This document shows, piece by piece, positions 5,054 through 30,849 of a stretch of DNA of 40,955 nt. A program made the translations under genes and the position numbers. Source of the stretch: a virus. Below the pieces are notes generated by a model. The model had not been told where the DNA came from, made no database searches, and saw only the letters and a program-made list of their open reading frames with translations. The DNA lies in the UHGV virus genome UHGV-0384352; one strand, written 5' to 3'. Position 1 is the stretch's first letter. The number at the start of each line of letters is the position of its first letter.

Positions 5054-5200
5054 CCTCCTTTCTTTGTCGCATATCATGCGATTTTCTTTATGCTAACACA
5101 GTATTCTCCTGAAGTCAACACCATATTCGCATATTGTGCGATTATTTTTTGTTTTTTCGTTTTTATGTGTTGCAAATATGCGATTTATATGTTAATATTG
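5054..5200. promoter_or_regulatory. Genetic-switch region: divergent promoters and three TCGCAT-N3-ATGCGA-like operators
   Basis: Three operator-like sites: O1 5067-5081 TCGCATATCATGCGA, O2 5127-5141 TCGCATATTGTGCGA, and O3 ~5170-5183 TTGCAAATATGCGA. The plus-strand promoter is TTGCAA(5170)-17-TAATAT(5193). The minus-strand promoter is TTGACT (rc of 5113-5118)-17-TAGCAT. Confidence 0.5.
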
Positions 5201-5228: not shown

Positions 5229-5801
5229 ATGACAGTAGGAGATCGCATAAAGCAGCGTAGACTAGAGTTAGGGCTATCTGTCGATGATTTGGCTAGTAAA
5301 CTAAATAAGAATCGGGCTACGGTTTATAGATATGAAAGCAACGACATAGAAAACTTTCCCACATCTACCTTGGAGCCCTTAGCCAAAGCTCTTGGTACAA
5401 CGCCTGCTTATCTCATGGGTTGGGAAGAGCAAACTTCCTTTACAAAAGAGGACTCCTTCAATTATTTTCTTGAAATGCAGCTCCGACTTATGGGCTATGA
5501 GATTATTTATGAAGAAGAGGATTTCTATACAATCTTACGATATGAGGGCCATGAGTATGAAATTGATGACAAAGATATTAATGAGCTTTCCTCTGCCACC
5601 AAATCTTTTGTTGATTTCAAACTCCATGAAATAATGAAACATTCTCGTTTAATTGGAGGAAAGAAAAAAGTAACACGTCTTTCGAGTAAGGCCTATCTGG
5701 AGCCTCAGGCCGCGCACGAACGTACCGATATAGAAGTAACCGATGAAATGCGCAAACACGATGATGACCTAATGGATAATGATGACTTATGGGATAAATA
5801 A
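5229..5801 (+). CDS. XRE-family HTH repressor (cI/ImmR-like, no S24 peptidase domain)
   Basis: The N-terminus RIKQRRLELGLSVDDLASKLNKNRATVYRYE is a classic XRE helix-turn-helix. The ~125-aa C-terminal domain lacks a Ser-Lys dyad. RBS GAGGCGG lies before ATG 5229. Confidence 0.75.
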   Translation: MTVGDRIKQRRLELGLSVDDLASKLNKNRATVYRYESNDIENFPTSTLEPLAKALGTTPAYLMGWEEQTSFTKEDSFNYFLEMQLRLMGYEIIYEEEDFYTILRYEGHEYEIDDKDINELSSATKSFVDFKLHEIMKHSRLIGGKKKVTRLSSKAYLEPQAAHERTDIEVTDEMRKHDDDLMDNDDLWDK

Positions 5802-5814
5802 GGGGTGTTGACTC

Positions 5815-6306
5815 TTGAACTACTACGAGACATTGATTGATGGGGCTACTTATGATGGATTTATAGTAAAGGAACTTCCCTTAAAATCTGGAGATGGACG
5901 CTGTAGAGGACATCGCATCGCTATCCGCCAAGATATACCAACACTAAAGAAAAAGGCCGATGCTTTGGCCGAAGAAATAGCACATGGAAAGATAACCGTT
6001 GGTGATATAAGCGACCAAACAAAACCCGCGAACCGCCGTCAGGAGCGCTTGGCTCGTTTAATGGCTTATGAAATCCGATTTCCACTAATGGATATCGTGA
6101 ACGCTTGCAAAGCACGCTGTACAAATACTTATGAGATATCAGAGTACCTTGATGTATCAGAGGATACCATAAAAGAGGCCTTGGAGTTTTATAGGCAGAA
6201 ATATGGCCAAAGTACAACTGTCGGCGATTATATAATCCAGTTTGAGCCTTATTTGCTCGTATATGAATATATAATCCCAAATGGCGAAAACAGTTTTCTT
6301 AGATAG
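5815..6306 (+). CDS. ImmA/IrrE-like (M78/DUF955-like) protein with variant HEXXH (LAEEIAHG)
   Basis: 163 aa. The gene sits directly after the repressor and before int, matching the ICEBs1 immR-immA-int order. The segments KADALAEEIAHG and QERLARLMAYEIRFPL resemble the ImmA motif region, but the first His is replaced by Glu. Confidence 0.4.
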   Translation: MNYYETLIDGATYDGFIVKELPLKSGDGRCRGHRIAIRQDIPTLKKKADALAEEIAHGKITVGDISDQTKPANRRQERLARLMAYEIRFPLMDIVNACKARCTNTYEISEYLDVSEDTIKEALEFYRQKYGQSTTVGDYIIQFEPYLLVYEYIIPNGENSFLR

Positions 6307-6456
6307 CAAAAAGCGGCTCGTACTGGAATACGAACCGCCTCTCACATAGATTTCTCTTACCGGGCTACCCCAGAAAGATAATCCAAACATAGACACTTGG
6401 ATTATATCATTCCTGGAGCGTCCTGGCAAGGGGCGTGTTTTTTATACCCAAAAATC

Positions 6457-6474
6457 AGTTGCGACGTCGCAACT
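6457..6474. repeat. 18-bp perfect palindrome AGTTGCGACGTCGCAACT 20 nt upstream of int RBS
   Basis: Self-complementary sequence. It belongs to the TTGCGAYRTCGCAA family seen at ~9880, ~24663 and ~25056. Confidence 0.6.
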
Positions 6475-6493
6475 CCCGGAAAGGAATGATATA

Positions 6494-7546
6494 ATGCCGT
6501 CATATTACGATGAAAAACAAAAAACCTATTACTGCAAATTCTACTACAAAGACTGGACAGGCCAGCGCCGCCAGAAGCTGAAACGAGGCTTTACCAAAAA
6601 GGGGGATGCCAAGGATTGGGAGAGGGACTTTCTGTCAAAACACGCAGGGAGTCCAGATATGACCTTCCAGGCACTCTATGACCTTTATACAGAGGACATA
6701 AAGCACAGACTTAAACAGTCTACCATTCGTAATAAAAAGGGGCCCTGCGAGCGTCACATAGTCCCCTACTTTAAAGATAAGCCCCTCAATGAAATTACCC
6801 CCGCTGATATACGGCAATGGCAGGCTAAAATACTATCCAGCACCTTAAAAGACACTTACCAGCGCCAGATATATAACCAACTCAATGCTGTATTAAACTT
6901 TGCAGTACGGTACTACGGACTCCCGCGGAACCCGTGTGGCATCGCTGGTCCTATTGGAAAGGCCAGGGCCAGCAGAATGGACTTCTGGACGCTGGACGAG
7001 TTTAACCTGTTTATTGGCCAGATTAAAAGTCCCCATCTCTATGCCGCATTCAAGACCTTATATTATACAGGTATGCGTTGTGGTGAAATGTTTGCCCTAA
7101 ATCTTGAAGACGTGGAGCTGAATGCTGGGATTATCCATATATCCAAAACATATCACCGGGTTAACCGTCAGGATGTAATCACCACACCTAAAACAGCTAA
7201 CAGTGTGCGTGATATCACCATACCGCCGTTCCTGGTAGATTGCTTGTCAGACTATGCTGGGCGTATTTATGGAATAGAAACAGGGGAACGGCTTTTCAAG
7301 ACCACTCAGAGCAAACTAATCACAGCTATGAAAAAATACAGCAGCGCAGCAGGAATAAGGCGCATTCGCATACACGATTTGCGCCATAGCCATGTTTCAT
7401 TACTCATTGATATGGGCTTCTCCCCACTCTTAATTGCGGAACGGATTGGAGACACTGTTGATATGGTCAATAATATTTACGGCCATCTCTATCCTAATCG
7501 GCGTAATGAGGTTGCCGATAAATTACAGCAATTAGTATCAAAGTAG
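6494..7546 (+). CDS. int: Tyrosine integrase (phage integrase family)
   Basis: 350 aa. The N-terminus has a SAM-like fold. The C-terminus carries the motifs RIHDLRHSHVSLL and NIYGHLYP (catalytic Tyr). Confidence 0.9.
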   Translation: MPSYYDEKQKTYYCKFYYKDWTGQRRQKLKRGFTKKGDAKDWERDFLSKHAGSPDMTFQALYDLYTEDIKHRLKQSTIRNKKGPCERHIVPYFKDKPLNEITPADIRQWQAKILSSTLKDTYQRQIYNQLNAVLNFAVRYYGLPRNPCGIAGPIGKARASRMDFWTLDEFNLFIGQIKSPHLYAAFKTLYYTGMRCGEMFALNLEDVELNAGIIHISKTYHRVNRQDVITTPKTANSVRDITIPPFLVDCLSDYAGRIYGIETGERLFKTTQSKLITAMKKYSSAAGIRRIRIHDLRHSHVSLLIDMGFSPLLIAERIGDTVDMVNNIYGHLYPNRRNEVADKLQQLVSK

Positions 7547-9040: not shown

Positions 9041-9814
9041 TCACCACTCGAACACGTACCGTCGATTTACCATGTCGTATTCTTCTGCAATCCGGAGCAC
9101 ACCCCTGGCATCCGTAATCATGCACTTGCCCTCGTCGCTGCCCTTGACTGGGCAAAGTAAAAATGCCTCACCGGCAGGGTCCACCTGGTAGCCGGTCAGC
9201 ATGTAGCCCTCGGAATCGAACAGATACCAACCACAGGTGCCGTCCGTGGCCTCCTGGAGCCAGTACCAGCCATTGGCCGCATAGCTGCCGTCTGTAAACT
9301 GATACAACCATCGCTGGCCGTCTGCGGCCGGCTGAAAGCCCTGGGTGTATGTCACTGGGACCGGGGTATAGTCAATGTCGCAGAGTTTAAGGGCCTTCTG
9401 CCAGGGAGTGGCGGTCACCTTACTCTTTTTTGTGCCATAATCAATGCCCTTGGCCTCGATGCACCAGCCATCACCTATGTACACCCCGATATGGCCCGGC
9501 TTCCAGAGCGCCCAACCGACCATGGACTCGTCCAGATGGTCGATACCCACGCGCTCCACGGCTGTGTCGTGGTAGTTGTAGCTGCCGCGGATGCGCCCAG
9601 TGTACCAGCTGATGAGGCCGGAACAATCCGTGCAGCGCTGGCCTATGTATCTGGCCGCCTTGGCTTTGTAGGTGGATGTGTATGTGCCTGGGTTCTCCCG
9701 GGCGAGGCGGTCCAGGATGGCCTGGGTAATGACCTCGCCCTTGGCGCCGTAGACGTAAGGGGTGCCCAGCTTGTCCTTGCAGTGCCGTATTAATCCTGCT
9801 GATGTTTTACTCAT
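9041..9814 (-). CDS. Endolysin: NlpC/P60 peptidase domain + choline-binding-type cell-wall-binding repeats
   Basis: GGAGGAT RBS, then MSKTSAG. The active-site Cys context is CTDCSGLISWY. The C-terminus has the repeats GWYWLQEATDGTCGWYLFDSEGYMLTGY. Confidence 0.8.
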   Translation of the reverse strand: MSKTSAGLIRHCKDKLGTPYVYGAKGEVITQAILDRLARENPGTYTSTYKAKAARYIGQRCTDCSGLISWYTGRIRGSYNYHDTAVERVGIDHLDESMVGWALWKPGHIGVYIGDGWCIEAKGIDYGTKKSKVTATPWQKALKLCDIDYTPVPVTYTQGFQPAADGQRWLYQFTDGSYAANGWYWLQEATDGTCGWYLFDSEGYMLTGYQVDPAGEAFLLCPVKGSDEGKCMITDARGVLRIAEEYDMVNRRYVFEW

Positions 9815-9877
9815 AGTGTTATCCTCCAATCTAAAAGGCCCAGGGGCATCCCTGAGCCATGAAAAGTTGTGACGTCA

Positions 9878-9905
9878 CAAGTTGCGATATCGCAATGCCC
9901 GCTTA
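9878..9905. repeat. Two adjacent palindromes TTGCGATATCGCAA and TTGTGACGTCACAA upstream of lysin
   Basis: Both are directly visible in the sequence. They sit ~100 nt upstream of the lysin start, between holin and lysin. Confidence 0.6.
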
Positions 9906-9939
9906 ACCTCGCGGCGGGAGATATACGGACCACCTCCTT

Positions 9940-10431
9940 TTATGTCCTGCTGCCTCCCTGATAATCTGTATTGTCAATCTTATCCTTCAATACCGCAATA
10001 TATTTGCGTAGCCATTCCGGCACATTGGCACCCATACGGCCTGCGTTCTCAATGATGGACAACAACTCATTGAGTAAGTACCAGACCGCCACCAAGAGCC
10101 CGAAGAATGCCTTGACAGATATTTGCATCCCAAGCTCTACCGACACGGATACAATTACATAATCAACCACCATTGCCGCCGCAATCACGCACAGGTATCC
10201 CACCTTCTTAATAATGCCTTTAGCCCCCTTTCTGGAGCTCCATCCATAACTGGCATCTCCCGGATGGTCTATGGCCTCATTTTTACTGGCCAACATGCCA
10301 GTTATGTAGTCCAGCACCATCGTCCCCATTAGGACGCAAAGAACCGGATACAGGAAACCCAACTTCGCACTCAAAAAGGCACCAGCTGCTGCCAATGCCC
10401 CCTGTATTGTAATCACATATTCTCTTTTCAT
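9940..10431 (-). CDS. Holin (phi-LC3 / Phage_holin_4_1-like)
   Basis: 163 aa with multiple transmembrane segments. LCVLMGTMVLDYITGMLASK...KGAKGIIKKVGYL matches the holin_4_1 pattern. The gene is immediately upstream of the lysin. Confidence 0.75.
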   Translation of the reverse strand: MKREYVITIQGALAAAGAFLSAKLGFLYPVLCVLMGTMVLDYITGMLASKNEAIDHPGDASYGWSSRKGAKGIIKKVGYLCVIAAAMVVDYVIVSVSVELGMQISVKAFFGLLVAVWYLLNELLSIIENAGRMGANVPEWLRKYIAVLKDKIDNTDYQGGSRT

Positions 10432-10449: not shown

Positions 10450-11514
10450 TCAAATGACTTTTCGTATAATAGGAATTTTCCTCAATATACTTGTTAACAT
10501 GAAACCAACTATTATTACAAGCATTATATTCACACAGCATATTATAATTGGAGGAAGAAAATAAAATATCTTCGTACCAATAGGGAAGATTTTATCCCTA
10601 AGGTATTGTTCCATCACAAATATGCCAAACACACACTGACTAAGAGATAATATCCATTTTCTTTGGCATATAGAAAAGTTGGTCTGTCCAGCTGCATACT
10701 TAACCCCGCAAAACACTCCTATAGCAGGCATTAAGATAAAGGTTGAATGGAATAACTGAGAGCTTTTTTCATTGCATATACCTGTATTTATACAATTATA
10801 GTGCACCATAAAACATGCCACTACAATACTTAAAAGTCCTACTATCCACAGTATTTCCCTATGCTTTTTTATCCGAGCTTCATCAAAATAATGGTCCAGA
10901 TAGTATCCTATGCATAAGTAAAAAATAGGCATATAAGTAATAATCGGAATTTCAATACTTATATTCACCGTATTATTAAATGCAAAGTATTGGAAAACTG
11001 GTATTAACATAGAAAAAATGATATACATGGTAATCAAATACATGTAATCCTTTTCTTTCATGTTTTGGGCCATTTTTCTTATTAGTGGAAGCATCAATAA
11101 TATAGATAAATAGCTGTATAAGAACCAATATGGTACAATCACGTCATTTGAATACACCCTGCGAAAAAATGAATATATTGAAAACGGCTCAATATGATTT
11201 CTAACCAGTATCACATACCAAAAGAAAGAGGCTCCTAAAATCACTAAAATAAAACGTGAAATTCTCCAACGCAAAATTCTAAATGTGTCATCTTTTCCAA
11301 TAAGTAGTGCACCTGATATCATAAAAAATAATGGCACTGCTATTTTACAAAATATAGACATGGATAAGTAGACCCAATATTCCACGGTGACTGGGGTTAC
11401 CGAAAACAAAAAAAAGCCTTGTGTGCCTGTATGATTAAAAATGACGAGAAAAATGGCTATTATCCTTAAAATATCCAAATAAATTTTTCTTTTGTCCCCA
11501 CTGCTATCTTTCAT
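10450..11514 (-). CDS. Acyltransferase family 3 (OatA/Oac-like) integral membrane protein, low-GC moron
   Basis: 354 aa with ~10 transmembrane helices. The gene is markedly AT-rich compared with its flanks and has its own promoter and RBS. Confidence 0.75.
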   Translation of the reverse strand: MKDSSGDKRKIYLDILRIIAIFLVIFNHTGTQGFFLFSVTPVTVEYWVYLSMSIFCKIAVPLFFMISGALLIGKDDTFRILRWRISRFILVILGASFFWYVILVRNHIEPFSIYSFFRRVYSNDVIVPYWFLYSYLSILLMLPLIRKMAQNMKEKDYMYLITMYIIFSMLIPVFQYFAFNNTVNISIEIPIITYMPIFYLCIGYYLDHYFDEARIKKHREILWIVGLLSIVVACFMVHYNCINTGICNEKSSQLFHSTFILMPAIGVFCGVKYAAGQTNFSICQRKWILSLSQCVFGIFVMEQYLRDKIFPIGTKIFYFLPPIIICCVNIMLVIIVGFMLTSILRKIPIIRKVI

Positions 11515-23809: not shown

Positions 23810-24421
23810 TTAAAGTCCGAACGCCTTTTTAAGGGCGTCGTCTGTCGCCTGCGTCTGCTGTTGCCCACTGGCAGCTCCCACCTGGATGAACCCGGTGGAG
23901 CCTGATGCCTGGGGTTTCAGCGCCGGCACGTCCTCAAGTACCTTGTCCAGAGCCGCTTTAAGCGCCTCATCGTTGATTTTCCCATCCTGCCCCATGACCT
24001 GACTTAAGTCGGCCATCTTAAGGACATATGGAATTGTTTTGGCATCAATCCCCAGTGATACTGCCGCCATGGTGGCTGCACTGTCAATCATGGCCTTCTG
24101 AGCCACTGCCTGAGCCTGGGTGAGCTGCTGCTGGATTGCACCTACATCTGGCTGCTGGGCCGCCTTCTGCTGCTTAAATGTGGCAATTGCCTGTTCCATT
24201 TCTTCCTGGCTGAGCCCCTGCTGCTTGAAGTAGGCTTTCAAGGCCGTGTCCTCCTTAGCGGCCAGAGTTCCTTCCAGCATTTGCTGGATTTTAGCATAAT
24301 CAATTGCGGGGGATGCCTGCTGTCCTGTTTGAGTTTGTGTCTGCTGCTGATTCTGACCTCCTGCCGGCGGCTCTGCTCCACCTGCGGGCTCAGCAAATAA
24401 CTGTAAGTTCATACGTTTCAT
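23810..24421 (-). CDS. Scaffolding protein
   Basis: GGAGGT RBS, then MKRMNLQLFAEP. NLQLFA is a common scaffold N-terminus. The protein is Gln/Ala-rich and helical. Confidence 0.7.
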   Translation of the reverse strand: MKRMNLQLFAEPAGGAEPPAGGQNQQQTQTQTGQQASPAIDYAKIQQMLEGTLAAKEDTALKAYFKQQGLSQEEMEQAIATFKQQKAAQQPDVGAIQQQLTQAQAVAQKAMIDSAATMAAVSLGIDAKTIPYVLKMADLSQVMGQDGKINDEALKAALDKVLEDVPALKPQASGSTGFIQVGAASGQQQTQATDDALKKAFGL

Positions 24422-24526
24422 CATCCATACCTCCATTTTAAGGGTGTCACCCTGTAATTTTTATTGCATCCATTGTCATCAGTGTCGCTGGCCACGCAGC
24501 AGTTTTAAGCCATGCTCGTGTTTGGG

Positions 24527-24558
24527 CGTAAAAATAACACCCGGGATAGTCCCGCGTG
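24527..24558 (-). terminator. Rho-independent-like terminator after the small-gene cassette
   Basis: Minus-strand CACGCGGGA-CTA-TCCCGGGTG stem (9 bp, 1 mismatch) is followed by TTATTTTTAC. Confidence 0.45.
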
Positions 24559-24564
24559 CTTCAC

Positions 24565-24642
24565 TCATTTCTTCTTTCCATTCCAACACAATATAATAAG
24601 TGTCAGGCATATAATTGCCGTAATCTGTACTGCCGGGGTCAT
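24565..24642 (-). CDS. 25-aa hydrophobic peptide MTPAVQITAIICLTLIILCWNGKKK
   Basis: GGTGGAG RBS is present. ATG overlaps the TGA of the upstream 130-aa gene (ATGA). The peptide has a single transmembrane segment. Confidence 0.35.
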   Translation of the reverse strand: MTPAVQITAIICLTLIILCWNGKKK

Positions 24643-25034
24643 ATCTCCACCTTCTTTCCGTTGCGATATCGCAAATTATAACCTGTCCGTTTCATGTTTT
24701 TTGTTACAGCATTAATGATTTCATCTTCATCCAGATGTTCCGTAACATCCATGGAAACTTTCGTCACAGCCGGCTCGTAAGTTGCAAGGAAGATATCCGG
24801 CTTACACGGATATATCTCTCCTGCTATACCACGGATAATATAATCCCCCACACTGGCCTCATGTACACCTTCCAGAGTCTGAATCATGAATTTTACATCC
24901 GGCGTCCCTGCATTTTCAAACCACGCCACCTTGCTTTTGATAGCCTCGATAATCCATTCAGGGTCATCCTCCTGCTCTGGTCCTCCTGTCCATTGAAAAG
25001 CCTCAATTACCACTGGTTTCTTTCTGTATTTCAT
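24639..25034 (-). CDS. Hypothetical 131-aa protein (MKYRKKPVVIEAFQWTGG...), candidate immunity/moron gene
   Basis: Strong AGAGAGGATAAG RBS before the internal ATG of track ORF 24639..25088. The gene is flanked by a 22-bp direct repeat that contains the palindrome. Confidence 0.5.
   Translation of the reverse strand: MKYRKKPVVIEAFQWTGGPEQEDDPEWIIEAIKSKVAWFENAGTPDVKFMIQTLEGVHEASVGDYIIRGIAGEIYPCKPDIFLATYEPAVTKVSMDVTEHLDEDEIINAVTKNMKRTGYNLRYRNGKKVEI
24652..24673. repeat. 22-bp repeat TCTTTCCGTTGCGATATCGCAA (copy 1, contains 14-bp palindrome)
   Basis: Identical to the copy at ~25045-25066. Confidence 0.65.
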
Positions 25035-25044
25035 TCTTATCCTC

Positions 25045-25066
25045 TCTTTCCGTTGCGATATCGCAA
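25045..25066. repeat. 22-bp repeat TCTTTCCGTTGCGATATCGCAA (copy 2)
   Basis: Identical to the copy at ~24652-24673. It lies ~15 nt upstream of the RBS of the 131-aa gene. Confidence 0.65.
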
Positions 25067-25087
25067 CAAATAAAATACCACCGGCCA

Positions 25088-25252
25088 TTACTGACTGGTG
25101 GTATCATGTTTCTTTTTATATTCTTCCAGCTCTTCTTTTGTCGGCATCGGAATCACAATATCATCATGATCCTGAGCAAAAAACGTCCCTTTTGGATACT
25201 CGCCGATTGGACGATCAACGTCCCGAAAACTTACTATATGCTTTTCTTTCAT
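25088..25252 (-). CDS. Hypothetical 54-aa protein MKEKHIVSFRDVDRPIGEYPKG..., ATGA-coupled to the MuF gene
   Basis: GGAGGAAAAATG: the ATG overlaps the MuF TGA. Its own TAA overlaps the next gene's ATG (TAATG). Confidence 0.4.
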   Translation of the reverse strand: MKEKHIVSFRDVDRPIGEYPKGTFFAQDHDDIVIPMPTKEELEEYKKKHDTTSQ

Positions 25253-26844
25253 TTTTCCTCCATAAAATATGTAAAACCATACTTTGATGTCAGTTTATCT
25301 AGGATGCGTCTCTGATATTCAATTGAGTAGTCATTATCTGTTGTAATCCGACCAGACAATACCTCTTCATACATTTCATTCTGTAACGATAACTGGATCT
25401 CAGAATATTCTTTTTCCAACTTTTCAAAGGAATTGATTCCTTCCGGCCATTCCGCAGGCTGTCTTATGACATACACCCCATCACGACCAATGGCACGCAA
25501 CTCTGTGACACCAGTTCTGCCCATCATATCAATATCATCCACTGAAAAGGTAGCTCCACTTGGATGATTGTGGGTTAACACACCACCTAACATTAGCGCT
25601 GTCTCTTCATCGGTATACACAATCCTGTCTTTTTCTCCGCGTTTCTTTAGGATACGCTTTCCTTGGGAATCGTACAATATCCCATATTCATTTTTATGTC
25701 CAGCAATGGAAGCCTCGTCAAGCCTACGTCTTTCAATTGCATCATCCGACCACCCCTCTGTTTTAATTATACCAGAGTCCTGATACTTGGCAAGCCTTCG
25801 TTTCCAGTCTTTTTCTTTTGCCGTATACATAGTCTTGTTTTCAGGAGATAATGAGTGTTCTGCCAGCCTCCCATACTTTTCCGCCTGCCTTGATACATAC
25901 TGCTGCCCGGCCTCCTGCTTATTGGCCTGACCAACCGCCTCCAGTTCCTTCTCAGTCCAGGTATCGTCCGCCGTGGAGATGCCAGGGAAATAGGTTGTAT
26001 GGCTGTCCTTGCATCTGGGGTGATACAGTCCAGATGCTATGGCCTTACTCATGAGGGGATACGGCCCATCGGATTTCTTTCCGCCGGACCAGACGTCGTC
26101 AATCAGGACTTTACCGACAAAGGGCAGGCACTTAGGGCACGGATTCCCGCGCTTAGCCATGATAACCGTGGTAATCCCCCATTCCTGCCGCTTCTCTCCT
26201 TCACCCTGCAGGTAGGCCCGCTTGGATGCCGTCCGGATGGCCATGTCTGCATAATCTGCCAGGGTATGACGGGCACCATTGGCATACTCCACACAGTTCA
26301 ACCCGCGGGAAAGCAGGTCCTTGGTGGCCATGTCCACAGCCTTCTCATAGGTGCCGGCGCCTGAATTGGCATATACCTGGGCGTTGAAAATGGCCTTCCG
26401 GTAATCATCATTAGCCATCCTGAGGACTGCCGTTTCAGCTCGCTGCATATCATTGGTCGTGGCCTGAATTAGTGCCTCTAACTTCCGGTCATTCATCCGG
26501 AAGAACTCTGCCGTGGCTCCCTGGCTGACTTTCTTTGCCGGGAACCCATTCCGGATCGCGTTCAGAATTTGTATTTCCTGCTGCATGTTCCCCTTCTGCC
26601 GGGCAATCTGGATAAGCTCACCCATTTCCTTGTTTAGGTTCCGAAATTGCTTTCCATACCGCTTCTGGTTGTCCTTTTTGTACCTCTCCAGGGCTTTCAG
26701 CTGTTCCGTTTGCCACATGGACCACTCAATACCTTCCTTGGTCTCCTCGGCCCGATGCCTGTCCATGTTGCGAATCATGCATTTGATAAGCTCATCCTCT
26801 ATGGCCTGGAAGGCGGCACCGATATTATACTCATTATGTTGCAC
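25249..26844 (-). CDS. MuF/SPP1-gp7-like head morphogenesis protein fused to ~230-aa C-terminal extension with JAB/RadC-like HNHPSG motif
   Basis: The N-terminal ~300 aa carry the MuF signatures GNPCPKCLPFVGKV...YHPRCKDS. The C-terminus contains LGGVLTHNHPSGATFSVDDID. This resembles the RadC JAMM core HNHPSG-x4-S-xx-D, but with one residue fewer. Confidence 0.75.
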   Translation of the reverse strand: MQHNEYNIGAAFQAIEDELIKCMIRNMDRHRAEETKEGIEWSMWQTEQLKALERYKKDNQKRYGKQFRNLNKEMGELIQIARQKGNMQQEIQILNAIRNGFPAKKVSQGATAEFFRMNDRKLEALIQATTNDMQRAETAVLRMANDDYRKAIFNAQVYANSGAGTYEKAVDMATKDLLSRGLNCVEYANGARHTLADYADMAIRTASKRAYLQGEGEKRQEWGITTVIMAKRGNPCPKCLPFVGKVLIDDVWSGGKKSDGPYPLMSKAIASGLYHPRCKDSHTTYFPGISTADDTWTEKELEAVGQANKQEAGQQYVSRQAEKYGRLAEHSLSPENKTMYTAKEKDWKRRLAKYQDSGIIKTEGWSDDAIERRRLDEASIAGHKNEYGILYDSQGKRILKKRGEKDRIVYTDEETALMLGGVLTHNHPSGATFSVDDIDMMGRTGVTELRAIGRDGVYVIRQPAEWPEGINSFEKLEKEYSEIQLSLQNEMYEEVLSGRITTDNDYSIEYQRRILDKLTSKYGFTYFMEEK

Positions 26845-30414: not shown

Positions 30415-30515
30415 CCGCGCTCACCTCCTTGCGTCAGTCAAAGAAAAGAACCCCAGACCTATAATAGCCTGGAGTCCCAGAAAGGAATTTACAATGTCAA
30501 ATGTATCTGTCTGAA

Positions 30516-30589
30516 TAGCGGGGACAGGATTTGAACCTGCGGCCTCCGGGTTATGGGCCCGGCGAGCTGCCAGACTGCTCTACCTCGCA
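30516..30589 (-). tRNA. Phage-encoded tRNA-Met (anticodon CAT), initiator-like features
   Basis: Cloverleaf folded by hand. D-stem GAGC/GCTC has a GG-containing loop. Anticodon stem CCGGG/CCCGG carries three G-C pairs next to the loop CCCATAA. T-arm is GCAGG-TTCAAAT-CCTGT. Acceptor is TGCGAGG/CCCCGCT, with 1:72 and 5:68 mismatches. Confidence 0.55.
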
Positions 30590-30793
30590 ACAATGCGTAC
30601 CTGCATCTAAGTACCCAGCATCTGGATACCCGATGCGCCAGTACGCCATGCTGACATATTCAGCGGTACCTTGTGCCGCAGTCACAATGCCAGCGAGTCA
30701 GCCACCAGGGTGTGATACCTGGCGGCCGTTGCTTAAATGGGGAGGGTGCAAAACCAATCAGCTTTCCGCTTCATCCAATTTTGCATATTACAA

Positions 30794-30849
30794 TTATAAA
30801 TCGTCCAAACGGACATGGCAAGGACACGATTTTGACATGCTCCTGTCAA
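30794..30849 (-). promoter_or_regulatory. Putative late promoter TTGCCA-16-TATAAT with upstream dyad TTGACAGGAGCATGTCAA
   Basis: On the minus strand, TTGCCA is rc(30816-30821) and TATAAT is rc(30794-30799). The palindrome at 30832-30849 is centred ~25 nt upstream of the -35, 5 nt after the ArpU stop. Confidence 0.45.

Follow-up and report, generated by a model that had tools for sequence, protein, structure and literature searches.

Why should a phage genome place one and the same short perfect palindrome in front of genes as unlike one another as an integrase, a lysin and two small accessory genes? The question is raised by UHGV-0384352, a temperate siphovirus-like genome of 40,955 nucleotides (nt) that was analysed over its whole length (the window), and in which one copy of the palindrome lies between the terminator of the cI-ImmA operon and the ribosome-binding site of the integrase gene int. 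We find that the palindrome is an optional insert of 15–21 bp in a portable junction cassette, devoid of a promoter, that temperate Lachnospiraceae phages share, and that this cassette is a conserved linker at which unrelated modules are joined or exchanged. As to how the palindrome is read, we favour, with a probability of roughly 40%, a dyad-symmetric, sequence-specific site that would be recognized on double-stranded DNA by a candidate homodimeric protein inside transcription units, where it would serve as an additional block to elongation or as an insulator.

Four exact copies of TTGCGAYRTCGCAA are present in the window (Table 1), as the initial annotation of this genome had stated, and none occurred in 100 dinucleotide-preserving shuffles of the window. 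When two mismatches were allowed, one further match appeared, TTGTGACGTCACAA, which is the second palindrome already noticed beside the copy near 9881; a degenerate family pattern, TTGYRMYRKYRCAA, retrieved no further true copies over the window, and the 41 kb thus hold five palindrome sites in total. The int copy, TTGCGACGTCGCAA, is the core of an 18-bp perfect palindrome, while the two copies near 25 kb are each enclosed, as first described, in an identical 22-mer, TCTTTCCGTTGCGATATCGCAA. On the coding strand of three copies the palindrome is followed by C(N0-3)CGGAAAG, a Shine–Dalgarno (SD) sequence and ATG, again as originally reported, and 21 nt separate the palindrome from the ATG of int (plus strand), as against 18 nt both for a gene of 131 amino acids (aa; ATG 25034, minus strand) and for a gene encoding a 25-aa hydrophobic peptide (ATG 24642, minus strand). 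The lysin copies, P1 and P2, lie 53–81 nt 5' of the lysin ATG (9814), not at the ~100 nt first given, and a terminator-like hairpin stands between them and the SD. The earlier placement of copies 5' of the ribosome-binding sites of two small genes holds as a leader position, but the 24661 copy is not intergenic, since it falls in the final codons of the 131-aa open reading frame (ORF; ...LRYRNGKKVEI, then stop). Every palindrome of the window adjoins a strong hairpin with a U-run.

Related loci in other genomes show the palindrome in two layouts. Before int and before exchangeable accessory genes (morons), an intrinsic-terminator hairpin with its U-run is followed by the optional palindrome, an extended SD (A/GGAAAGGAG) and the start codon; before the lysin, a stop codon is followed by one to three different palindromes, a terminator hairpin and the SD. 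Type A leaders consist of a hairpin (ACCACCnGUCA...GGCCGGUGGU) with U-run, the palindrome, C, RGRAAGGAG and ATG. Their cargo comprises many unrelated genes, including the 131-aa family, a family starting with MKRLFISQPM, the 25-aa peptide and, as judged by eye from the N-terminus, a DUF2829-like gene. The 131-aa gene of the window has this order (H1, UUUUAUUUG, palindrome, SD), hairpin H1 being the 5' part of the portable cassette. In type B, a conserved block of divergent promoter and terminator is followed by UUUUUAUACCCAAAA, the palindrome and the SD; the block precedes at least six integrase types plus a zinc-ribbon gene, and in the window it reads terminator, T-run with ATACCCAAAAATCAG, palindrome, SD. 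The CG-centre allele found at int also occurs in two hairpin-type leaders (L348 and L351). Type C leaders run from the stop codon of holin or another gene through one to three different palindromes and a hairpin, GGCCyGGG...CCCrGGCC with U-run, to the SD and the lysin gene; the order in the window is holin stop, orphan SD-like sequence, P1, P2, hairpin H2, UUUU, SD. A survey of 122 distinct contexts, 84 of them with a detectable start within 120 nt, gave a bimodal distribution of palindrome-to-start distances, with 10–24 nt in 43 contexts, 45–79 nt in 35 and no start up to 120 nt in 38; the extended SD RGRAAGGAG lies between palindrome and start in the 43 of 84 that have the short distance. 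The palindrome itself fits no definition of an intrinsic terminator on the sense strand. Only the antisense strand of the int copy conforms to a hairpin plus U-run, and the other copies run into CGGAAAG or another palindrome.

The palindrome is also found away from leaders. In 'empty' cassettes, seen in four loci (L147, L174, L257 and L362), no gene stands between the leader and the next terminator. Copies that lie in frame inside genes read (V/I)AISQQ. They are found in early proteins, in acidic linkers that separate a conserved N-terminal domain from C-terminal parts that vary, at the point where homologous proteins cease to be alike. In one such early-protein family, present in six loci (L084, L131, L141, L198, L266 and L284), a conserved ~200-aa N-terminal domain (WYEG...SRYM...SQLQEML) is followed by the acidic linker with the in-frame palindrome (VAISQQ) and then by unrelated C-terminal modules; the window has no homologue of this family. 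The sole Pfam hit among proteins with in-frame copies was ParB_N, in L243, where this domain replaces the ~200-aa N-terminal domain; the L243 protein likewise has no homologue in the window.

Presence of the palindrome is optional at every type of junction. It is absent from the leaders of four integrases 97–99% identical to that of the window (L081–L084), from further leaders that have the same conserved upstream block (L088–L093 and L160), from the lysin leaders L486/L091, L449 and L470, and from most hairpin-type moron leaders. The insertion or deletion is clean: at int, L160 reads ...ATCAG joined directly to AAAGGAATG (AAAGGAATGATATAATG), and L255 reads ...ATCAG with the insert TTGCGATATCGCAACGGG before AAGGAATG (AAGGAATGATATCATG); L091/L486 versus L215 form the corresponding pair at the lysin. 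A scan with the type A hairpin alone yielded 67 new distinct leaders, most of which have the form hairpin-UUUUUAUACCCAUUUUUAAGAAAGAGAGGA-ATG and lack the palindrome. In 9 of the 67 a perfect 14-bp palindrome stands directly 5' of the SD, and in 3 a near-perfect one, where chance would give 0.002 per leader. In a second sample, for which loci were picked by lysin homology only, exact P1 was found in ~36 of 51 distinct leaders. The majority of these 51 have P1, P2 and H2, several have H2 only, and four (also L091) are without the leader; in two of the 51 (L488 and L505) P2 is gone as an exact 15-nt unit. Cargo genes of the same families are found under leaders of either kind, with or without the palindrome.

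Junctions between modules coincide with the element. Among the loci picked by lysin homology, at least seven different genes adjoin P1 on its upstream side at a distance of 0–5 nt, and 10 of 24 BLAST alignments of the lysin region of the window with other loci start at the first base of P1. In type A loci, homology begins at the hairpin and the sequence 5' of it differs. Compared with L001, L002 and L005, the window contains a 104-bp insertion (24565–24668) that carries the 25-aa peptide gene (MTPAVQITAIICLTLIILCWNGKKK) and whose left junction falls at the palindrome centre, TTGCGATA being followed by TCGCAAC... in the window and by AGCACGC... in L002. In L009 and L190 the same peptide gene stands under its own leader of H1 hairpin and palindrome. 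As a by-product, the 16–22 bp of identity provided by the palindrome would offer recombination a foothold.

The palindrome family is common to hundreds of gut Lachnospiraceae phages. The 15-mer TTGCGATATCGCAAC was found in at least 118 IMG/VR contigs, where most matches represent the full 16-bp palindrome GTTGCGATATCGCAAC, and GTTGCGATATCGCAAC occupies the same junction types across these contigs. A bacterial scan for the 16-mer, with one genome per species, gave at least 120 loci; among the matches listed, ~44 of the 120 lie in prophage-like contexts, with titles that include Enterocloster, [Clostridium] clostridioforme, Hungatella, Lacrimispora, Butyrivibrio and other Clostridia. The Lachnospiraceae genomes among the matches listed have two to three palindromes each, all in prophage-type contexts, and the remaining matches listed are scattered singles in unrelated phyla, at about chance level (~140 predicted for the collection). 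From this distribution, Lachnospiraceae are the host clade, and the element is carried by prophages and is not a host-wide repeat. The initial annotation had asked whether the motif is equally dense in host DNA and whether it is conserved at orthologous positions in related phages. The few copies per genome in prophage-type contexts, among the matches listed, do not contradict a phage element, and conservation holds at the level of junction types but not gene by gene. Near and distant BLAST searches of GenBank phages with the window and its leaders gave no relatives, and a full-text literature search for the palindrome sequences returned unrelated primer matches only, with neither palindrome in any relevant paper. 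The human gut is rich in temperate phages of Lachnospiraceae, on which hardly any work exists, and the GenBank phage collection contains none of them.

The pattern of sequence change bears on the level at which the element is read. In an alignment of 32 lysin leaders in which base pairs were counted, H2 alternates between U·G and C-G at two pairs and swaps AU for GC at two more, with 99% of cells paired; it changes via G·U and compensatory swaps and is therefore a structure at the RNA level. In the same alignment, P1 and P2 are almost invariant, with no alternative stems and essentially no wobble use. Over all samples there are at least nine alleles, every one a perfect palindrome (TTGCGATATCGCAA, TTGCGACGTCGCAA, TTGTGACGTCACAA, TTGTGATATCACAA, TTGTAACGTTACAA, TTGTAATATTACAA, TTGCACCGGTGCAA, TTGCGCCGGCGCAA and GTGCGACGTCGCAC), which are linked by symmetric double changes, asymmetric intermediates being present at low frequency. 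The symmetry spans pairs 6/9 and 7/8 (centres AT/AT, AC/GT and CC/GG, the slash marking the dyad), loop bases that would be unable to pair in a hairpin. Mismatches in the stem on the sense strand are balanced, four of the G·U type and four of the A·C type, which lends no support to an RNA stem. Predicted hairpin energies of the 14-mers range from -6.0 to -1.0 kcal/mol, with several alleles at only -1.0 to -2.8 and P2 at -2.8, and the forms of 16–18 nt fold at -6.9 to -8.5 kcal/mol (z -3.7 to -4.7). When the whole window was searched against Rfam, tRNA-Met was the sole match, and the leaders had none even at E ≤ 10. We infer that the palindrome is more constrained in sequence than the RNA hairpin next to it, symmetric through its centre, retained in alleles that barely fold and tolerated in ORFs and empty cassettes. 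Together, these properties suggest recognition of the sequence itself, most simply by a symmetric dimer bound to duplex DNA.

The reading that we favour would work as follows. A symmetric (homodimeric) protein would recognize the palindrome on duplex DNA inside transcription units, not at promoters, and beside a terminator the bound palindrome would add an elongation block or insulator. Since the palindrome lies within transcription units next to terminators and not at promoters, such a role in the lysogen appears the most economical one. The clearest case would be int: the cI-ImmA operon, which the lysogen expresses, lies immediately upstream, and read-through from it would be kept out of the integrase gene; the lysin and the moron cargo would be shielded from read-through in the same way. 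The palindrome sites would not stop antiterminated late transcription: a strong late promoter followed by a leader and a strong terminator implies late transcription that is antiterminated and able to pass internal terminators, and it probably passes these sites as well. The candidate binder is neither the cI/Cro of this phage nor, apparently, its sigma-region-4-like late regulator. Several points weigh against this proposal. A comparison of the regulators of the window with all palindrome-bearing loci pointed to no shared regulator, and a binding protein was not found. Different alleles, two or three of them, stand next to each other in one leader (P1 and P2 in the window, three in L259 and L495), an arrangement that suits one dimeric protein poorly, because a protein tolerating the allele differences would not enforce perfect symmetry. 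That symmetry might also be kept without selection by template-switch correction of quasi-palindromes. The tight, allele-independent placement 5' of the SD is what would be expected of an RNA or translation element and is the main argument for a role in RNA. The 4–5 sites per genome are far fewer than the known sites of elongation-blocking repressors and, since members of one gene family may have or lack the palindrome, any effect would be modulatory.

A role in RNA, somewhat less probable in our view, is the closest alternative. The transcribed palindrome would then be a small intercistronic hairpin that insulates the SD, protects a processed 5' end, blocks ribosomes sliding from the upstream stop codon, or binds a translational or antitermination factor (nut/boxB-like or Com-like). 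The palindrome always lies within co-directional transcription units. In leaders of the hairpin and int types it stands 0–6 nt 5' of the extended SD, whichever the allele, and in lysin leaders 0–5 nt past the stop codon and 5–12 nt before the terminator. It is surrounded by clear RNA features (H1, H2, H3 and the orphan SD-like sequence), the 16–18-nt forms have the fold energies given above, and the layout parallels that of the SAS/ESAS of Cluster K mycobacteriophages (PMC3203893). Yet the four bases that would form the loop are symmetric too, always self-complementary as AUAU, ACGU or CCGG; the G·U bias and the alternative stems within a leader family that H2 displays are missing from the palindrome; several conserved alleles would hardly fold; copies occur in frame within coding sequences and in empty cassettes between two terminators; and no Rfam family matches. 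Quite improbable, in our estimate, is a palindrome that is itself a recombination site, the target of a nuclease or recombinase or a recombinogenic structure that would drive gain, loss and exchange of cassettes in an integron-like or PeSL-like manner, with alleles as compatibility classes. Palindromes do flank cassettes (the 131-aa gene of the window lies between two of them, and the peptide gene follows the second), gain and loss of units are precise, mosaic junctions fall at the palindrome edge and once at its centre, in-frame copies mark domain boundaries, empty cassettes keep the element and the central dinucleotide is always TA or CG. However, half-site scars are not enriched (113 occurrences of GTTGCGAT without the other half versus ~107 expected), target-site duplications are absent, no dedicated recombinase is linked to the element (the window has only a tyrosine integrase and a free-standing HNH), and junctions at the edge are expected at any conserved block from ordinary short-homology recombination. 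To our knowledge, moreover, recombinase core sites are longer than 14–16 bp. At least as speculative is the bolder notion that the palindromes are docking sites of a dedicated, undescribed cassette-exchange system of the integron-like, 'plug-and-play' kind, with classes such as TTGCGAT/ATCGCAA, TTGTGAC/GTCACAA and TTGCACC/GGTGCAA that would be cut or synapsed at the centre and would move promoter-less SD-gene units and protein domains, or else that a single new class of dimeric regulator reads them both as DNA and as RNA.

The initial annotation had taken the palindrome for a shared operator or leader element, distinct from the cI/Cro operators and possibly bound by an ArpU-like or Com-like protein that co-controls int, lysis and the MuF-associated cassette. 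A shared leader element it is, and the cI/Cro operators, TCGCA-N5-TGCGA at 5067 and 5127, are indeed different. The co-control part finds no support, and a classical promoter operator for a second phage regulator of these three gene groups now seems very unlikely. It would account for a palindrome that is present in several copies before genes, and for half-sites that start with TTG like a -35 hexamer, in a genome that encodes a sigma-region-4-like helix-turn-helix (HTH) protein; at int, the palindrome centre also lies ~70 bp upstream of the inferred start of the divergent promoter. Against it, a search for sigma-70-type promoters at the lysin and moron copies (9700–10100 and 24400–25400) detected none between hairpin and start codon, leaving three of the four sites promoter-less, and the only strong promoter near the int copy is directed away from int. 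For the lysin and moron copies this absence already largely refutes the operator reading. Other promoter arrangements (a palindrome half as -35, an extended -10 over the ATG, antisense promoters, class II spacing, sigma-54 spacing) were considered and dropped, their spacings being misfitting or variable and the scanner finding none. Presence of the palindrome is independent of the gene, with int no exception, and the element is shared by phages with unrelated immunity and early regions. The ArpU-like candidate, the sigma-region-4-like 168-aa protein, has a conserved inverted repeat of its own, TTGACA-N5/6-TGTCAA, upstream of the late promoter, which has no copy of the palindrome; the arms of that repeat are fixed and its centre is variable and asymmetric, unlike the palindrome, and it looks from its sequence like an ordinary protein operator. 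The 168-aa protein has no relative in PDB; ParB_N was not found among the window proteins scanned, and a LuxR-type protein is likewise not encoded. Three cI/Cro operators (5067–5081, 5127–5141 and 5171–5184) contain the palindrome pentamers (TGCGA-N2-TCGCA) in everted order, but TCGCA-N5-TGCGA was not found in other palindrome-bearing loci and the likeness is probably coincidental. Scarcely credible, finally, is a signal of the host genome (a restriction/modification site, an uptake sequence or the operator of a host regulon) that also happens to be present in the phage. The central hexamers GATATC, GACGTC, ACCGGT, GCCGGC and AACGTT are classic 6-bp palindromes, but GATATC, with 22 occurrences in the window, shows no avoidance, the remaining cores are found at the expected frequency, and a restriction-site core was rejected on this ground; the host matches listed, prophage-type in Lachnospiraceae and near chance elsewhere, also speak against it. 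The element is neither a terminator nor an Rfam family nor a restriction or uptake site.

Table 1. Features of the window that surround the palindrome copies or are referred to in the text
Feature	Position	Strand	Remark
cro-like gene	5077-4826	-	
cI-like HTH gene	5229-5801	+	
ImmA protease	5815-6306	+	
Strong promoter-like site, TTGCCA-17-TGaTATAAT	6401..6429	-	Points away from int; -35 in loop of plus-strand terminator
Intrinsic terminator after cI-ImmA operon	6418..6445 (stem-loop 6418-6436, T-run, ATACCCAAAA)	+	Part of conserved block preceding many different int genes
18-bp perfect palindrome AGTTGCGACGTCGCAACT, CG-centre allele	6457..6474, core 6459-6472	none	Between terminator and int SD
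Tyrosine integrase (int), ATG 6494, with extended SD GGAAAGGA	6479..7546 (gene 6494-7546)	+	
NlpC/P60 lysin	9814-9041	-	Flanks P1/P2
H2, terminator-like hairpin GGCTCAGGGATGCCCCTGGGCC + U-run	9833..9858 (hairpin 9837-9858)	-	Directly 5' of lysin SD
P2, TTGTGACGTCACAA	9867..9880	none	1 base 3' of P1 on coding (minus) strand
P1, TTGCGATATCGCAA	9882..9895	none	Holin-lysin intergenic region
Orphan strong SD-like AAGGAGGTGGTCC + ATCTCCC + GC hairpin	9896..9939	-	Between holin stop and P1; recurs in other loci
holin_4_1 holin	10431-9940	-	Flanks P1/P2
Tail and head genes	between lysis genes and head-assembly genes		
H3, terminator-like hairpin (+ GUUAUUUUU)	24542..24554	-	Closes moron cassette
25-aa hydrophobic peptide gene	24565..24642	-	Cargo of inserted cassette
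131-aa gene, phrog_419 (no assigned function)	24639..25034	-	Cassette cargo; final codons hold next palindrome
Second 22-mer, with palindrome copy 24661-24674	24653..24674	none	Left junction of 104-bp insertion
22-mer with palindrome copy 25053-25066	25045..25066	none	On minus strand, leader of 131-aa gene
H1, hairpin AUACCACCAGUCAGUAAUGGCCGGUGGUAU + U-run	25068..25105 (hairpin 25074-25105)	-	Immediately 5' of palindrome; stop codon of 54-aa ORF in loop
MuF / minor capsid 2	26844-25249	-	
Portal, terL, terS	29974-27036 and 30414-29971		
tRNA-Met	30590-30515	-	
Sigma-region-4-like 168-aa protein	31360-30854	-	
Replication genes	upstream of sigma-region-4-like gene and late genes		

Several further features of these regions were noted. 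Beside int, the divergent promoter could give rise to a candidate small RNA of ~85 nt on the minus strand (6394 to 6308), predicted to fold into two hairpins (-41.9 kcal/mol, z -5.7) with a terminator at its end. The block that holds it is kept beside many different integrase genes, and the candidate has no match in Rfam. In the holin–lysin spacer, the orphan SD-like sequence is complementary to the 3' end of 16S rRNA, and the ATCTCCC that comes after it can pair back; no canonical start codon follows. The combination AGGAGGTGATCC-N4-ATCTCCC recurs in many loci (L161, L290, L376, L388 and L404), sometimes with only a terminator after it, and the sequence resembles mRNA stabilisers of the STAB-SD type. 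An ORF of 40 aa that spans this spacer (9933–9811) would start at a GTG within the SD-like sequence and is considered improbable. The acyltransferase_3 gene between the tail genes and holin (10450–11514, minus strand), with a low GC content of 0.37, is likely a lysogenic-conversion moron. Upstream of the 131-aa gene, the MuF protein has a C-terminal extension of ~190 aa past its Pfam domain (residues 335–531), and a 54-aa ORF (25088–25252, minus strand) overlaps and follows its gene, a layout that recalls pairs of MuF polymorphic toxin and immunity protein. At ~500 nt from its stop codon, the MuF coding sequence contains a promoter-like site scoring 11/12 (25766–25793, minus strand; TTGCCA-16-TGgTATAAT), the third such site with this same -35; from it the C-terminal extension could be expressed in the lysogen, together with the small genes downstream.

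The late control region (30447–30849, minus strand) lies directly downstream of the sigma-region-4-like gene and combines the inverted repeat, here TTGACA-N6-TGTCAA, with a near-consensus promoter (TTGCCA-17-TATAAT, 30821–30793), a structured leader of ~300 nt, tRNA-Met and a terminator with a 13-bp stem (30478–30447) just 5' of the terS SD. The arrangement resembles the Q/PR'/tR' layout of lambda, and repeat and promoter are kept in seven other loci (L003, L004, L006, L011, L013, L120 and L296). In the genome as a whole, 6-base palindromes with GATC or CTAG (AGATCT, CGATCG, TGATCA, GGATCC, CCTAGG, GCTAGC, TCTAGA and others) occur in 0–1 copies each, versus ~9–10 expected from base composition, a scarcity that suggests avoidance of GATC- and CTAG-specific restriction.

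As one sequence family at the joints of accessory genes, integrases, lysins and even protein domains, the element provides a practical marker of module and moron boundaries in gut prophages and a handle on how mosaicism arises in this phage group, and the natural leaders with and without it form a set for testing the tuning of expression. If a binder exists, many phages of a single host clade that are otherwise unrelated would share it as a regulator or insulator.

Among known systems, the PeSL cassettes of T4-type phages come to mind, in which a short conserved intergenic motif with a terminator stem-loop flanks variable ORFs, breakpoints fall at the motif, and a regulatory function is combined with homology for module shuffling (PMC2839356, PMC4122927). 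The junctions described here likewise carry an intergenic terminator stem-loop with U-run (H1, H2 and H3), and breakpoints of indels and replacements between related phages coincide with the motif. PeSLs, however, have a sigma-70 early promoter after the stem-loop, where none was detected here and a perfect palindrome and SD are found instead, and they belong to T4-like myoviruses and not to temperate siphoviruses of Firmicutes. The SAS of Cluster K mycobacteriophages is an SD-containing conserved sequence at the start codons of a subset of genes, with an inverted repeat upstream in about half of the cases; it is present or absent between homologous genes, asymmetric and 13 bp long, its companion ESAS consists of imperfect 17-bp repeats with a spacer of 4–13 bp, and no function has been assigned (PMC3203893). 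Association with starts at a fixed short distance together with an SD, and optional presence, are shared with our element, which is nevertheless a spacer-less perfect palindrome of 14–16 bp, occurs also after stop codons and in ORFs, and belongs to Lachnospiraceae phages. Stoperators of Cluster A mycobacteriophages are repressor sites in short gaps within operons that stop elongating RNA polymerase in the lysogen; they are asymmetric and orientation-dependent, are bound by a monomeric immunity repressor and number ~20–30 per genome (PMC9283540, PMC6550527). The palindrome also lies inside operons in short intergenic gaps, and the logic proposed for it would be comparable (PMC9283540). Unlike stoperators, it is symmetric, is present at 4–5 sites per genome, differs from the cI operators and is common to phages with unrelated immunity regions.

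In the modular theory of lambdoid phages (Susskind and Botstein; Clark et al. 2001), short conserved linkers reportedly join unrelated genes at module boundaries; those linkers are not known to be palindromic or to form a single family over hundreds of genomes. The Aca2 inverted repeats of anti-CRISPR operons are palindromes beside the ribosome-binding site of accessory cassettes among phage structural genes (PMC6765145, PMC13551039). Aca sites lie in a strong promoter with a linked aca HTH gene, neither of which is found here. The inverted repeat of an Aca2 operon can be read at two levels, as a DNA site and as a hairpin in RNA which takes in the ribosome-binding site. Perfect palindromes of 14–16 bp are also bound by ParB-type or architectural proteins and by LuxR/NarL-type dimers, as in parS, Noc NBS, RacA ram, KorB OB and the ComA box (TTGCGG-N4-CCGCAA). 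Perfect or near-perfect symmetry, invariance of sequence, dispersed copies and tolerance within genes are common to these sites and the present palindrome, whose half-site TTGCG(A/G) resembles the ComA box; the spacing differs from that of the ComA box, the copies are borne by prophages only, and no ParB or LuxR-type protein was found among the window proteins scanned. The element thus belongs with the conserved junction or start-associated repeats of phage genomes, and it was previously undescribed for the Lachnospiraceae phages of the gut.

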